Shown here piece after piece: positions 50,101 to 59,006 of a stretch of DNA of 64,000 nt. How positions within the stretch are numbered: the stretch's first letter is position 1; every line of letters begins with the position of its first letter. The notes beneath the pieces are model-generated. The model worked only from the letters and a program-made list of their open reading frames with translations. It had not been told where the DNA came from and searched no databases. The position numbers were made by a program, and so were the translations under genes. Location of the stretch: NCBI RefSeq assembly GCF_013315695.1, contig NZ_CP054353.1; one strand, written 5' to 3'. The DNA comes from Escherichia coli. Its GTDB lineage: Bacteria; Pseudomonadota; Gammaproteobacteria; Enterobacterales; Enterobacteriaceae.

Positions 50101-50112
50101 TTTCCCATTCTC

Positions 50113-50135
50113 CCGACCAGCAATCGCCGGTCGGG
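50113..50135 (+). terminator. Hairpin downstream of dtpB (cccgacc...ggtcggg)
   Basis: 7-bp stem immediately after dtpB stop; no strong T-tract. Confidence 0.35.
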
Positions 50136-50486
50136 ATCCTCTCTGGTTTAACTTCCCGCCAAAATCAAACACGCACAAAACCGCACAAAAACCTCTATTC
50201 ACGCAGAGTCACGCATTAATAATTCTATTAACAAGAAATATTTGAATCCTGGAAAGCAATACGCAAAATTAATGAAAACAGTGCAACCAATTGTTTAATA
50301 TGAAAATATAATAAATCATGTGATTCATCTCTCAAATATTAACGATCTCCATAGGCAATGCATGTTTCTGCGCATAAATTACAAACATGCAAAAACACGC
50401 ATTAAGATGTAAACAAAATGATGCTGGCTGCATAAAAATCATGCTGGCAGTAAGCCTTAATCAATGAAGAAACGTGGAGAATGAAG

Positions 50487-51296
50487 ATGGATCAAGCAAA
50501 CAAATGGTTGGATCTCTCAGGAAAAGTGGTGATCGTGACCGGGGGCAGTATGGGGTTAGGCGAAAAAATGGTCGAAAACCTCTCTGCAAATGGCGCAAAT
50601 GTCGTTTATGCCGATCTGGCTCCCAACCAGAGCTTTAATGAGATGGAAGGCATTACCTTTATAAAATGTGATGTCACAAAAAAGACCCAGGTTGAAGCTC
50701 TCACACAGACAGTCGTAGAAAAGTTTGGTCATATTGATGGCCTGGTTAATAACGCCGGGGTCAGCCGCCCGCGACTGTTGGTCGATGTATTTAAACAAAA
50801 ACCAGAGTACGAACTTAGTGAAGACGACTTTGATTTTATGGTGGGAGTGAATCAAAAAGCCGTTTACCTGGTATCGCAGGCCGTAGCTCGTCAGATGGTC
50901 GAACAGCAGTCAGGCGTCATTATTAATATGACATCTGAAGCAGGTGTTCAGGGATCGCGTGGACAAAGCTGTTATTCAGCGACAAAAGCCGCCGTCAATG
51001 CATTCACCTTTTCATGGGCAAAAGAACTGGGTCCGTTTAACGTTCGCGTTGTCAGCGTTGAACCAGCTATAAACGTTCCTACTCCTATGAACAGCGAAGC
51101 GAATTTCCGTGCTCTTGCTTATACACGCGGCACAGATCCCTCACATGTTCATAAAGATTACAAAGGAATTATCCCGCTTGGTCGCCCTGGCAAACTCGAA
51201 GAAATCGCTGACTTAATTTCTTTCCTGGTTTCGGATCGTTCTTCCTACATTACCGGTTCCGTGATCAATATCACCGGCGGTAAATCACACCATTAA
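50487..51296 (+). CDS. Short-chain dehydrogenase/reductase (SDR) family oxidoreductase
   Basis: ORF 50481..51296; ATG 50487 after GGAGA. Gly-rich VTGGSMGLG motif, YSATK catalytic motif. Confidence 0.8.
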   Translation: MDQANKWLDLSGKVVIVTGGSMGLGEKMVENLSANGANVVYADLAPNQSFNEMEGITFIKCDVTKKTQVEALTQTVVEKFGHIDGLVNNAGVSRPRLLVDVFKQKPEYELSEDDFDFMVGVNQKAVYLVSQAVARQMVEQQSGVIINMTSEAGVQGSRGQSCYSATKAAVNAFTFSWAKELGPFNVRVVSVEPAINVPTPMNSEANFRALAYTRGTDPSHVHKDYKGIIPLGRPGKLEEIADLISFLVSDRSSYITGSVINITGGKSHH

Positions 51297-51323
51297 TCAA
51301 TAATCACTAAAATGGAGCCGACC

Positions 51324-56748: not shown

Positions 56749-57399
56749 TTATGCGAAAACCCGTTCGAGAATTTGCCAGTGACTGGTCACTTTGCCGTCA
56801 GCAAGCGTAAAGCGCGGGTCGTCCTGCTGGTGCTCTGCCGGTAGCGCAATAACTTGCATACCCGCCGCTTTTGCCGCAACCACGCCATTGAGCGAATCTT
56901 CAATCACCAGGCAAAATTCTGGCTCTTGACCTGTCATCAATGCGGCGGTGAGAAAAATCTCCGGATGCGGTTTGCCTTGCGCCAGCCCTTCGGCAGAAAT
57001 CACGACGGAGAAATAGTGGCGCATATTCAGCGTGCTGAGAACATTATCTATCTGCCGCTGCGGTGAAGATGACGCCACCGCCAGTGGAATATTGTGCTGA
57101 TGCAGGTGATTGAGTAATTCATATACCCCCGGCAATGGCGCAGGTTTTAGCCTGATTCGCCGGGCGACTTCTTCCACTATCGCATCATGCACCTGCCGGA
57201 GATTGTTGTCCGGGAGAGAATGGCGTTGATGCAACTTGCGTAAAAAGATAGTGACTGGCATACCGGTAAAAGGATCGAAATCTTCACGTTGCAGGGATAA
57301 GCCGTAATTGCGAAAGTAGTATTCGCACTCCACTTCTCGCCACACCGGTTCCGAATCAACAAGCACGCCATCCATATCAAAGATAACTGCTGCAAACAT
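56749..57399 (-). CDS. HAD-superfamily (subfamily IA) sugar-phosphate phosphatase / phosphomutase-like hydrolase
   Basis: 216 aa; N-terminal DMDGVL motif I. Confidence 0.78.
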   Translation of the reverse strand: MFAAVIFDMDGVLVDSEPVWREVECEYYFRNYGLSLQREDFDPFTGMPVTIFLRKLHQRHSLPDNNLRQVHDAIVEEVARRIRLKPAPLPGVYELLNHLHQHNIPLAVASSSPQRQIDNVLSTLNMRHYFSVVISAEGLAQGKPHPEIFLTAALMTGQEPEFCLVIEDSLNGVVAAKAAGMQVIALPAEHQQDDPRFTLADGKVTSHWQILERVFA

Positions 57400-57479
57400 A
57401 GTTATTCCTTCAGATAAAAAAGCGCCATATCTGAAAACAGGCTTTCAGATATAGCGGAAATAATTGATGCAAATGGCAT

Positions 57480-58037
57480 TTATTCCAGGTTGGCATGGAA
57501 CTGCCACAGCTCATGCATATTGATTTTTCTCTTACCGATTAATTCCAGGGCAACGATGTCCCCAAGCAGCAATAAAGATTGCTCGAAAAGAGAGGTCATC
57601 GGCTGAATGGAGGGGATTTCAGAAGGTAAGTTGAGTTTGGTTTTTACACCGATGCGTACAAAAAGGTCGCTATACGCTTTCATACTGCTTTCGGGGTTTG
57701 CACCAATATGCACAACGCTTGCATGAAAGCTTTTCGCTTTTCTGGCAATGCCGAGGGGAAACATGCTCTCACCGCTTCCGGAACCCACGATAAGCAGATC
57801 GCGCTCGGTAATGGCAGGCTCCGTAATTTGCCCGACAACGTAGGTTTTAATGCCCATATGCGCCAGCCGTTTTGCCATTGCCTGCAATGACAACAGCACC
57901 CGGCCAACGCCGACAAAAAAGACGTTCTCTGCCGCTTCGACCATTTCAATTAAGCGTTCAACCTCATCGGCGCTGATATTACCCAGCGTGGCGCGTAGTT
58001 CAGCCAACACCTTTTCCTGATTAGTCTGGTAACTCAT
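57480..58037 (-). CDS. SIS-domain sugar-phosphate isomerase (6-phospho-3-hexuloisomerase-like)
   Basis: 185 aa; SIS motif FFVGVGRVLLSLQAMAKRL...LLIVGSGSGES. Confidence 0.75.
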   Translation of the reverse strand: MSYQTNQEKVLAELRATLGNISADEVERLIEMVEAAENVFFVGVGRVLLSLQAMAKRLAHMGIKTYVVGQITEPAITERDLLIVGSGSGESMFPLGIARKAKSFHASVVHIGANPESSMKAYSDLFVRIGVKTKLNLPSEIPSIQPMTSLFEQSLLLLGDIVALELIGKRKINMHELWQFHANLE

Positions 58038-58744
58038 TGCTGGCCTCCTGACTGTGCCAGACCTTCACTCACATGGCGATCCAACTGCGTTTTATTGTCA
58101 GCAAGCGTCGCGCCTTTAATAAACAGCCCGGTGCTGCCAAGTACCAGATTATTCGCGCCCGCGGCGATAAGCCCTGGGATCGAGGCAAAAGAAACCCGAC
58201 CATCGACCTGGATGGCGACGCTCGCATCTAACCCGCAAATTTTCTCTCGCAGGTTACGCACTTTTTCCATGGCATAAGGCACCTGTGTCTCATTTTTATC
58301 CCCCGCAAAGCCCGGATTAATCAACATCAACAAAACGTAATCCAGCGAAGGCAGAAGGTAATCCAGCGACGTTAAACTGGTGGCAGGATTTAACGCCACG
58401 CCAGCTTCAACATTGTGTTTTTTAATGAGATTGACCAGTCTGTCAGGGTGTAACGACGTCTCATAGTGAAAGGAAACTCGCTGCACGCCAATCTCGAGAA
58501 CCTGCTGGATAAACCACTCGTTATTCATCGACATAATGTGGATATCAAAAGGCAGGTTTGTCGCTTTACGTAACTGCTTAATCGTCTCCAGCCCCAGCGG
58601 CATACTGGGGCTGAAAGCGCTATCAATGAGATCAATATGCAGGGCATCGACGCCAATCTCCTCCAGCGCTTTTACCGCATCGCTCAAATTGAGCAAATCC
58701 GCGCACATCAGCGACGGAGATAAAACAATTTTCGGGGCAGCCAT
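58034..58744 (-). CDS. Ribulose-phosphate 3-epimerase family protein (Rpe/AlsE-like ketose-phosphate epimerase)
   Basis: ORF 58034..58819; start set at MAAPKIVLSPSLMCADL (58744) after AAGAAGGAA. Aligns to Rpe: SPSLMCADL, HIDLID, NPATSL, LINPGFAG, VDGRV. Confidence 0.8.
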   Translation of the reverse strand: MAAPKIVLSPSLMCADLLNLSDAVKALEEIGVDALHIDLIDSAFSPSMPLGLETIKQLRKATNLPFDIHIMSMNNEWFIQQVLEIGVQRVSFHYETSLHPDRLVNLIKKHNVEAGVALNPATSLTSLDYLLPSLDYVLLMLINPGFAGDKNETQVPYAMEKVRNLREKICGLDASVAIQVDGRVSFASIPGLIAAGANNLVLGSTGLFIKGATLADNKTQLDRHVSEGLAQSGGQQ

Positions 58745-59006
58745 TTCAAATTCCTTCTTTTGCATGTTTTTGCGTATTTGAGATAATATGCGCATAAAAA
58801 CGCATAAACCATGCAGCAAAAGATGATCTGTGACGACGATCGAGATTTATCTCTTTAACCGTTTATTTTCAATAAATTAATCAACACAAAGAAATTACAA
58901 AACCATACACAGACTGCACGATTTTGCGTGTTTTAGTTATATAACAGCAGAGGAGGAGAAGGTTGAGGAGATCCGGGCAGCAACGCAGCCCGGCAATAAC
59001 GGGCGG

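Follow-up and report, generated by a model that had tools for sequence, protein, structure and literature searches.

In the mannitol operon mtlADR of Escherichia coli, the sugar alcohol is phosphorylated by the phosphotransferase system (PTS) and its phosphate is oxidized to a ketose phosphate by an NAD-dependent dehydrogenase. Proteins of the same enzyme IIC, IIB, and IIA (EIIC, EIIB, and EIIA) families and a dehydrogenase of the same fold, which would act in the same order, are encoded by a ten-gene island located between dtpB and rsmJ in a 64,000-nucleotide stretch of E. coli contig NZ_CP054353.1 (hereafter, the window). The ten intact genes occupy positions 50101-59006. The plus-strand genes encode a short-chain dehydrogenase/reductase (SDR), a mannitol-type EIICB, an EIIA, a DeoR-type regulator, an MtlD-like dehydrogenase, an HPr, and a GldA paralogue, and the convergent minus-strand genes encode an Rpe-like epimerase, a SIS-domain isomerase, and a HAD phosphatase. 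In contrast to mtlADR, the island has separate EIICB and EIIA proteins, neither of which reaches an MtlA cutoff, a dehydrogenase with a score of 152 bits where cutoffs are about 360, and a regulator of the DeoR type, not MtlR. The SDR, HPr, GldA, HAD, SIS, Rpe-like, and DeoR proteins have no mtlADR counterpart.

Other described pathways share single elements with the island. The SDR, which falls in the sorbitol-6-phosphate dehydrogenase subfamily (NF004817), recalls the srl/gut systems of enterobacteria and the gutF-type sorbitol-6-phosphate dehydrogenase of Firmicutes, and the L-sorbose (sor) pathway is likewise a PTS route with two successive oxidoreductases. The transporter of the island, however, is of the mannitol type and not of the glucitol or mannose type, neither GutM/GutR nor SorC is encoded, and the second dehydrogenase is MtlD-like, in contrast to the zinc-dependent sorbose-1-phosphate reductase (medium-chain dehydrogenase/reductase type) of the sor pathway. 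In the D-allose pathway of E. coli, the isomerase RpiB/AlsI and the 3-epimerase AlsE, a member of the ribulose-phosphate 3-epimerase (RPE) family, channel an unusual hexose phosphate into fructose-6-phosphate, and AlsE shares MC-DL and GFAG motifs with the island epimerase. On the other hand, allose is taken up by an ABC transporter and phosphorylated by a kinase, its isomerase is RpiB-type where that of the island is of the SIS/6-phospho-3-hexuloisomerase (PHI) type, and the AlsE model gives the island epimerase 146 bits, with a cutoff of 271. The score of the SIS protein is above the cutoff for HxlB, which acts with HxlA in the ribulose monophosphate (RuMP) pathway of Bacillus subtilis and methylotrophs, and related clusters of Lachnospiraceae contain a canonical-scoring HxlA. 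Unlike the RuMP genes, the island lies in a window without 3-hexulose-6-phosphate synthase (HPS), in the context of a polyol PTS instead of formaldehyde detoxification or methylotrophy.

The closest mention in the literature was a descriptive sentence in the 2009 genome paper of Streptococcus uberis on an untested operon, SUB0285-0289 of strain 0140J. This operon and one of Oceanobacillus jeddahense resemble the island in combining a mannitol-type PTS, an MtlD-family enzyme, an RPE-family epimerase, and a PHI, and the epimerase and PHI of O. jeddahense are 58% and 66% identical to those of the island, respectively. Unlike the island, both lack SDR, HAD, HPr, and GldA genes; they are themselves uncharacterized, and the MtlA and MtlD that were scored, those of Oceanobacillus, are near-canonical. 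The initial annotation of this locus had recognized no characterized operon in it, and our full-text literature searches likewise found none with this gene set. The sorbitol operon of A. soehngenii was considered and set aside as a classical gut-type operon unrelated to the island.

As judged from its protein families, the island resembles PTS polyol operons such as mtl, srl, gat, sor, or those for arabitol in Gram-positive bacteria, but its gene set matches no characterized operon that we found. We regard it as fairly probable that the island is old, was acquired horizontally, and serves the catabolism of a sugar alcohol not used by ordinary E. coli.

Protein families and catalytic motifs

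The proteins were scanned with NCBIfam models against their curated cutoffs, and Pfam domains were assigned on the Salmonella orthologues. All ten matched the families named in the initial annotation, namely a mannitol-type PTS with its own HPr, three dehydrogenases, and an epimerase, an isomerase, and a phosphatase, and the RefSeq annotation agreed. For the SDR, MtlD-like, PHI-like, and Rpe-like enzymes, no close relative with a defined substrate was found among solved structures.

The MtlD-like dehydrogenase (53972..55144, plus strand) is a divergent member of the mannitol-1-phosphate dehydrogenase family. It has the Mannitol_dh (PF01232) and Mannitol_dh_C (PF08125) domains, and a GAGRLG Rossmann motif and the K212-N217-H220 triad (KxxxxNxxH) were invariant across the family alignment. 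Its best mannitol-1-phosphate dehydrogenase model gave 151.7 bits against a cutoff of 368, and it fell far below the cutoffs (269-719) of all nine whole-length MtlD equivalog models (NF0026xx). Its identity to a near-canonical MtlD was 22%. Since both proteins coexist in one locus in relatives, the MtlD-like enzyme is unlikely to be a redundant MtlD.

The Rpe-like protein (58034..58744, minus strand) scored 182.8 bits with TIGR01163 against a cutoff of 212.6 and was also below the AlsE cutoff (NF007266, 146.3 bits against 271); its Salmonella orthologue carries PF00834. We aligned ten cluster-associated epimerases with the verified AlsE (PDB 3CT7) and two canonical Rpe structures. The cluster epimerases formed one subfamily with an invariant HIDxID(S/G)xFSPSMP, a three-residue insertion after NPGFA, and DGR at the position where Rpe has DGG and AlsE has DGS. 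The substrate-contact motifs MDGxFVPN, PGFGGQ, and DGG of Rpe are thus replaced by IDSxFSPS, PGFAGD plus the insertion, and DGR, and these replacements are kept in the ten orthologues. The catalytic and metal-binding residues of Rpe and AlsE have aligned counterparts in H-x-D, the His of 'HIM', and the Asp of 'VDG', and the cluster epimerases have the MC-DL and GFAG motifs in common with AlsE. Because the deviations are invariant in the subfamily and the catalytic His and Asp residues are retained, they argue for, without proving, a substrate other than ribulose-5-phosphate, possibly a hexulose-6-phosphate.

The SIS-domain protein (57480..58037, minus strand), whose gene overlaps that of the Rpe-like enzyme by 4 bp, passed the PHI model TIGR03127 (172.4 bits, cutoff 160), matched B. 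subtilis YckF (PDB 1M3S) with 120.9 bits, and is named hxlB in RefSeq. No gene for its usual partner HxlA or for another protein of the orotidine monophosphate (OMP) decarboxylase fold was found in this region of the window with the open reading frame (ORF) listing and NCBIfam.

The SDR (50487..51296, plus strand; WP_000371720.1) exceeded the cutoff of NF004817 (360 bits against 304) and contains the TGGSMGLG (TGxxxGxG) and YSATK (YxxxK) motifs. Its partner PTS is of the mannitol type in the island, in Firmicutes, and in Ewingella, and of the mannose type in one relative, but in none of these of the glucitol type (gut/srl). The divergent EIICB (51324..52790, plus strand) was below both MtlA cutoffs (NF011663, 506 bits against 589; TIGR00851, 390 against 468), which the neighboring Oceanobacillus protein passes at 622 and 506 bits, respectively. 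It is about 40% identical to this canonical-scoring MtlA and has the EIIB motif VACDSGMGSS with the phosphorylatable Cys, and its Salmonella orthologue has PTS_EIIC and PTS_IIB domains. The EIIA of the fructose/mannitol type (52787..53215, plus strand), whose gene overlaps the EIICB gene by 4 bp, matched best the EIIA domain of FruB (NF008319, 132 bits) and carries the active-site His motif AIPHG. The HPr-type phosphocarrier (55147..55434, plus strand) has the GIHARP motif and resembles the FPr domain of FruB (TIGR01003, 80 bits against 47.9; best match with the FruB HPr domain in NF008319, 105 bits).

The regulator gene (53256..53954, plus strand) encodes a DeoR/GlpR-family protein (E values of 1e-22 to 1e-42 with DeoR-family models), presumed to repress both promoters. 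Its Salmonella orthologue has HTH_DeoR and DeoRC domains, and it is the most conserved protein of the island, with 95-97% identity to the Salmonella and Superficieibacter orthologues. The GldA paralogue (55493..56584, plus strand) is a member of the glycerol dehydrogenase family (NF006941, 504 bits against 336) and not an orthologue of the K-12 protein, as it scored 428 bits with the K-12-type equivalog NF047954, whose cutoff is 700. The HAD-IA phosphatase (56749..57399, minus strand) has the DMDGVLVDS motif and is HxpB-like, its score falling just short of the cutoff for this hexitol phosphatase (NF008087, 188.8 bits against 191).

Distribution, age, and ancestry

The island was present in 16 of 5,426 complete E. 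coli genomes, which bears out its earlier description as an accessory island; all copies were chromosomal and always located at dtpB-rsmJ. They formed two allele groups, about 100% and 99.0% identical, and strain DSM 103246 of the second group had the ten genes intact at the same site; another carrier is strain MS 21-1. In Salmonella enterica subsp. diarizonae, too, dtpB and rsmJ enclose these ten genes. There, dtpB is separated from the island by genes for an Rrf2-family regulator and a pyridine-nucleotide-disulfide oxidoreductase (4124-6056 of the extracted locus), both absent from E. coli. In two Superficieibacter species and the metagenome-assembled genome (MAG) UBA5654, an uncultured member of Enterobacteriaceae, the block lacks gldA and is located between uspA and rsmJ. 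The locus of Superficieibacter electus has no dtpB, and about 2.3 kb of extra ORFs lie between the Rpe-like gene and rsmJ (12699-14640 of the extracted locus). The block therefore has borders that differ between genera within the same uspA to rsmJ neighborhood, and it was found in this chromosomal neighborhood in four enterobacterial genera.

Between E. coli and S. diarizonae, pN/pS (the ratio of nonsynonymous to synonymous differences per site) of the island genes was 0.05-0.28, and their pS was 0.70-0.84, i.e., saturated, against 0.51-0.63 in flanking core genes. With pN far lower than pS, the island genes have been maintained by purifying selection, and the saturation of synonymous sites indicates that the divergence of the two copies is ancient. 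A recent transfer between Salmonella and E. coli was ruled out by this saturation. At the island, searches for a tRNA and for flanking direct repeats and inspection of the ORFs and RefSeq annotation for an integrase were all negative, and a mobile genomic island or integrative element was ruled out, as there was no integrase or transposase ORF, tRNA target, or flanking direct repeat. Given the saturated synonymous sites and the lack of an integrase, tRNA, or flanking repeat, the island is old, and the earlier description of it as an old, non-mobile element holds.

To find more distant relatives, one genome per species was scanned for the MtlD-like family, and the ten island proteins were compared with the resulting loci by tblastn. 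The MtlD-like protein was 87% identical to its Salmonella relative, and the next relatives, mainly in Firmicutes (Enterococcus, Vagococcus, Oceanobacillus, Lactobacillus, and Anaerostipes), were at most 60% identical. In the scan, the family was recovered from Enterococcus, Vagococcus, Oceanobacillus, Amphibacillus, Lactobacillus helsingborgensis, Anaerostipes, Dorea, and other Lachnospiraceae. A core of SDR-EIICB-EIIA-(DeoR)-MtlD-like-HAD recurred in Firmicutes, and the SDR, EIICB/EIIA, DeoR, and MtlD-like genes of the island were collinear with the Firmicute operons at 52-71% identity. Gene order including the position of DeoR was as in E. coli in Oceanobacillus, Anaerostipes, and one MAG of Bacilli, and the Rpe-like and SIS genes lay within the same operon in E. 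casseliflavus and two Vagococcus species. HPr occurred only in the enterobacterial versions of the cluster and was absent from all Firmicute loci examined, and gldA was confined to the islands of E. coli and S. diarizonae. The enterobacterial HAD was 31-37% identical to the HAD proteins of the Firmicute clusters, against 52-71% for the other proteins. Because of this low identity and of a score near the HxpB cutoff, the HAD looks like a local replacement by an enterobacterial HxpB-type phosphatase. By these comparisons, the island, most of which is of gut Firmicute ancestry, is a mosaic: an AT-rich core and an Rpe-SIS pair, both of the Firmicute type, are combined with the enterobacterial additions HPr, GldA, and HAD.

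Other arrangements were also observed. Ewingella americana has DeoR and EIIA-HPr-Rpe-SIS-SDR-EIICB without MtlD-like and HAD genes. Beside its core cluster, Oceanobacillus carries the operon Rpe-PHI-MtlD-EIIA-EIICB, in which MtlA has a canonical score and MtlD a near-canonical one; SUB0285-0289 of S. uberis encodes these five functions as well. In Lachnospiraceae and Dorea, a PHI gene is located directly 3' of the MtlD-like gene, alongside genes for a near-canonical MtlD and a canonical-scoring HPS; next come a second PHI gene in the Lachnospiraceae locus and genes for a HAD and a DAK-family kinase in Dorea. In a metagenomic cluster, the SDR is linked to a mannose-type PTS, DhaK/DhaL, an HPS-like barrel, and PHI, and an MtlD-like gene lies close by. 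Judging from these neighborhoods, the island-type dehydrogenases appear to be functionally tied to PHI plus an RPE- or HPS-type barrel, and the clusters repeatedly include a phosphatase and a three-carbon enzyme, be it GldA, DAK, or DhaKL.

Among the cluster relatives, HxlA or HPS-like genes were found only in the Lachnospiraceae, Dorea, and metagenomic clusters. We observed that HxlA genes lie inside mannitol-type PTS operons of gut Lachnospiraceae and Dorea and that the metagenomic gene of the OMP decarboxylase fold (HPS-like) lies beside a mannose-type PTS (12156-13406, 11969-12595, and 11018-12263 of the extracted loci). RuMP-type enzymes thus sit in polyol operons of strict anaerobes, some with DAK or DhaKL kinases. 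Anaerostipes faecalis has an MtlD-like paralogue with 48% identity beside an ascorbate-type (Asc) PTS EIIC, a class II ketose-bisphosphate aldolase, a PfkB kinase, and a DeoC-like aldolase (3720-10155 of the extracted locus). This cluster, a further polyol-phosphate route that is uncharacterized, was considered as a guide to the pathway and dropped, as its context of Asc-PTS, kinase, and aldolase is unrelated to the island.

Regulatory elements and borders of the island

Two operator-like imperfect palindromes of about 47 bp were found, one in each leader. The first, AATGCATGTTTCTGCGCAT and ACATGCAAAAACACGCATT separated by a 9-nt spacer, lies upstream of the SDR gene (50357..50403, plus strand), and the second, TATGCGTTTTTATGCGCAT and ATACGCAAAAACATGCAAA separated by a 10-nt spacer (58759..58806, minus strand), ends 14 nt upstream of the start of the Rpe-like gene. 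Their right arms contain the 19-nt pattern AAAYAYGCAAAAACAYGCA, which occurred exactly twice in the window (50383-50401, plus strand, and 58761-58779, minus strand), each time oriented with transcription, and in none of 100 shuffles. An additional exact copy of a half-site, AAACACGCAAAA, is located upstream in the minus-strand leader (58922..58933, minus strand). Both palindromes were conserved in five enterobacterial loci. In 18 cluster-bearing loci, the core heptamer had a density of 4.18 against 0.34 per kb, an approximately 12-fold enrichment in promoter regions, and the half-site (A/C)RYGCAAAA recurred upstream of Firmicute clusters in direct and inverted copies. We infer that the palindrome is the operator of the DeoR regulator of the island. 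As a conserved palindrome is common to both promoter regions, the two convergent units seem to form one DeoR-controlled regulon.

The leader of the plus-strand genes also contains a CRP-like site, TGTGATTCATCTCTCA (50319..50334, plus strand), that matches TGTGA-N6-TCACA at 9 of 10 positions; its TGTGA half and most of the second half were invariant in the five enterobacterial loci. A weaker element, CTCGA-N6-TCACA, with a conserved TCACA half lies in front of the Rpe-like gene (58829..58844, minus strand). The CRP-like sites suggest catabolite control.

A strong terminator-like hairpin with 15 pairs and a T-run was found between the SIS stop and the HAD start (57423..57456, minus strand). Because of this hairpin, the HAD gene may be a transcription unit separate from Rpe-SIS. 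The three minus-strand genes had been described earlier as one module; their identity and order were confirmed, whereas their being a single unit is in doubt, as there are possibly two transcription units. Stop and start codons overlap by 4 bp between EIICB and EIIA (52787-52790) and between the Rpe-like and SIS genes (58034-58037), and 2 bp separate the stop of the MtlD-like gene from the start of the HPr gene (55144-55147), which suggests translational coupling inside each unit.

The contig NZ_OZ547117.1, from a UK blood-culture isolate and 100% identical over the region, was used as an annotated reference. Its RefSeq annotation and the ORF listing of the window agreed in content and order, and they confirmed the ten genes between dtpB (48628-50100, plus strand) and rsmJ (59007-59765, minus strand) as first described. 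The earlier statement that rsmJ directly follows dtpB in K-12 proved correct: in the K-12 derivative DH1, 48 bp containing a bidirectional terminator separate the dtpB end from the rsmJ stop, and the island stands in place of this spacer. The dtpB match broke off at position 50094 of the window in 5,406 other complete genomes. The 3' ends of both flanking genes differ from K-12: DtpB is one residue longer (SH* to SHS*; 50095-50100 of the window compared with 2895-2950 of the K-12 locus), and RsmJ has 252 instead of 250 amino acid residues and a different C-terminus (59007-59015). The insertion or deletion boundary therefore lies within the last codons of dtpB and rsmJ.

Two GC-rich hairpins were read at the borders. 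One, CCCGACC...GGTCGGG (50112..50135, plus strand), is likely the dtpB terminator that replaces the bidirectional terminator of K-12, and the other, 3' of the rsmJ stop (58973..58994, minus strand), is likely the rsmJ terminator. AT-rich parts preceded by an AT-rich leader had been reported for the island and were found again: the GC content was 0.39-0.41 in the 386-bp leader (50101-50486) and 0.38-0.42 over about 52.5-54.2 kb, and it rose to 0.57-0.58 in gldA. Between the convergent gldA and HAD genes lies a repeat (56590..56745) of the repetitive extragenic palindrome/bacterial interspersed mosaic element (REP/BIME) type with an inverted repeat at 56637-56707. E. coli genomes with a match contained it at a median of 34 places, and at 56615-56697 Rfam gave ES036 (CssrF) above and naRNA4 below the gathering score. 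From this repeat, we conclude that the island gained native E. coli repeats. Outside the island, RefSeq annotates the 17-codon gene yriB (48409-48462, minus strand) between uspA and dtpB.

Proposed route, alternatives, and significance

Every step of the following route is a proposal drawn from protein families and gene context. A phosphoryl group would pass from enzyme I to the FPr-like HPr of the island, then to EIIA and the divergent mannitol-type EIICB, which would import and phosphorylate a polyol. One or both of the polyol-phosphate dehydrogenases of different folds, the sorbitol-6-phosphate dehydrogenase-type SDR and the divergent mannitol-1-phosphate dehydrogenase-type enzyme, would oxidize the product to one or more ketose phosphates, which the divergent RPE-family epimerase and the PHI-type SIS enzyme would convert to fructose-6-phosphate. 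The HxpB-like phosphatase could serve as a relief valve for the build-up of polyol phosphate, and GldA, a late enterobacterial addition, might handle a small non-phosphorylated by-product or redox balance. DeoR would repress both convergent units through the common palindromic operator, and the CRP-like sites would add catabolite control.

The initial annotation cautioned that the substrate could not be inferred, and this caution stands. As to its class, it would be a polyol, probably a hexitol, and we favor a hexitol other than mannitol, sorbitol, or galactitol. This preference is based on the HxpB-like HAD, the PHI-type isomerase, and the AlsE-like features of the epimerase, on the coexistence of canonical mtl genes with the MtlD-like gene in relatives, and on the presence of the mtl and srl operons in both E. 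coli and Salmonella. S. diarizonae is, to our knowledge, classically dulcitol-negative, which counts toward the same preference, and E. coli has the gat system. Galactitol, which was considered because it fits the C4-epimerization scheme described below, was down-weighted on these last two grounds. Erythritol was considered because the trio of dehydrogenase, epimerase, and isomerase from a 3-keto to a 2-keto compound parallels the ery pathway of Brucella. It was down-weighted, since, with respect to the phosphate, the epimerized carbon would lie on the wrong side of the carbonyl and the HAD is close to the hexitol phosphatase type; enterococci and vagococci are also not known to use erythritol.

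Several reactions can be hypothesized for such a hexitol. Oxidation of allitol-6-phosphate or D-altritol-6-phosphate at C2 would give psicose-6-phosphate, which needs a 3-epimerase, and oxidation of mannitol- or altritol-type phosphates at C3 would give D-arabino-3-hexulose-6-phosphate, the substrate of PHI. The RPE homologue could epimerize C4 of 3-hexulose-6-phosphate, which is thinkable because this compound corresponds to ribulose-5-phosphate with one more carbon at the phosphate-distal end. In a bolder reading, which is less likely than not, the island and its relatives may encode an undescribed route outside methylotrophy, with 3-hexulose-6-phosphate as a normal intermediate of catabolism. 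In this route, the two dehydrogenases with complementary stereospecificity would oxidize rare hexitol phosphates of the allitol, altritol/talitol, iditol, or gulitol series, the 'DGR' enzyme would epimerize hexulose-6-phosphates, including C4 of 3-hexulose-6-phosphate, and the PHI-type isomerase would move the carbonyl between C3 and C2. If this is true, the epimerase and isomerase would be a general funnel from non-fructose ketohexose-6-phosphates to fructose-6-phosphate without the tagatose-bisphosphate pathway.

A redundant second system for mannitol and sorbitol, in which the PTS takes up either or both and the MtlD-like enzyme and the SDR oxidize mannitol-1-phosphate and sorbitol-6-phosphate, respectively, directly to fructose-6-phosphate, is unlikely. 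The mannitol type of the EIICB, the SDR score above its subfamily cutoff, and the Lys/Asn/His triad retained in the MtlD-like enzyme are consistent with it, and S. uberis ferments both polyols. The only mannitol-specific PTS in the S. uberis genome paper also shares its operon with Rpe and PHI. However, the EIICB is below both MtlA cutoffs, and the MtlD-like enzyme, at 152 bits against equivalog cutoffs of 269-719 and 22% identity to a near-canonical MtlD, occurs in one locus with near-canonical MtlD and MtlA in Oceanobacillus, Dorea, and Lachnospiraceae, which points to a distinct function. Catabolism of mannitol or sorbitol also has no use for an epimerase or a hexuloisomerase, and it is already provided for in E. 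coli and Salmonella.

For a pentitol (D-arabitol, ribitol, or xylitol), the two dehydrogenases would yield ribulose-5-phosphate and/or xylulose-5-phosphate, and the Rpe-like enzyme would interconvert them for the pentose phosphate pathway. An RPE-family enzyme is what such a route calls for, D-arabitol is similar to one end of mannitol on stereochemical grounds, and PTS operons with two arabitol-phosphate dehydrogenases are known from Listeria and Enterococcus avium. Nevertheless, we judge this route quite improbable. The Rpe-like enzyme is below the rpe equivalog cutoff and has an invariant non-canonical signature (FSPSMP, the three-residue insertion, and DGR) with some motifs in common with the hexulose enzyme AlsE, PHI would have no role in it, the HAD is close to the hexitol phosphatase type, and E. 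casseliflavus is usually not known to use any of the three pentitols. A biosynthetic role, in which the MtlD-like/HAD pair makes a free polyol from a ketose phosphate for osmoprotection or redox, as does the fused MtlD of Acinetobacter, and the PTS serves for re-uptake, is very improbable: the two genes are adjacent in Firmicute clusters and both products match the bifunctional mannitol-1-phosphate dehydrogenase/phosphatase model NF046057, but their scores of 76.6 and 84.6 bits are far below its cutoff of 800, the layout with an uptake PTS, a DeoR repressor, and CRP-like sites is typical of catabolism, the E. coli HAD gene is on the opposite strand behind a terminator-like hairpin, and HAD is missing from several clusters (Ewingella and Anaerostipes).

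Several points weigh against the interpretation that the island is a DeoR-controlled route for a rarer hexitol. The Firmicute clusters of E. pallens, L. helsingborgensis, and Anaerostipes have no Rpe-SIS pair, so that not every such pathway requires an epimerase and an isomerase step. The SDR passes the sorbitol-6-phosphate dehydrogenase subfamily cutoff, and its substrate may accordingly come from plain sorbitol, and the full-text searches gave no paper or experiment tying these genes to a substrate. Regarding regulation, the palindrome is assigned to the island DeoR by inference, the hairpin between the SIS and HAD genes weakens the case for co-regulation of HAD, and a scan for the sigma-70 consensus gave hits not above those of shuffles, with none convincing in the plus-strand leader.

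E. coli commonly carries accessory islands for sugars that are uncharacterized. Plant foods are rich in sugar alcohols, which also find wide use as sweeteners, and the gut consumers of each polyol are only partly mapped. The gene set described here is common to gut Firmicutes (Enterococcus, Anaerostipes, Dorea, and bee-gut Lactobacillus) and a few Enterobacteriaceae, and the identity of its substrate would therefore assign a function to a widespread annotation family. The annotations 'mannitol dehydrogenase', 'sorbitol-6-P dehydrogenase', 'Rpe', and 'HxlB' of such genes are probably wrong in detail. For E. coli, the island is a deletable single-locus trait present in 0.3% of complete genomes, including several bloodstream or poultry isolates, and a useful marker of niche or lineage. 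Finally, it may reveal a catabolic role of PHI and 3-hexulose-6-phosphate chemistry outside methylotrophy and formaldehyde metabolism.

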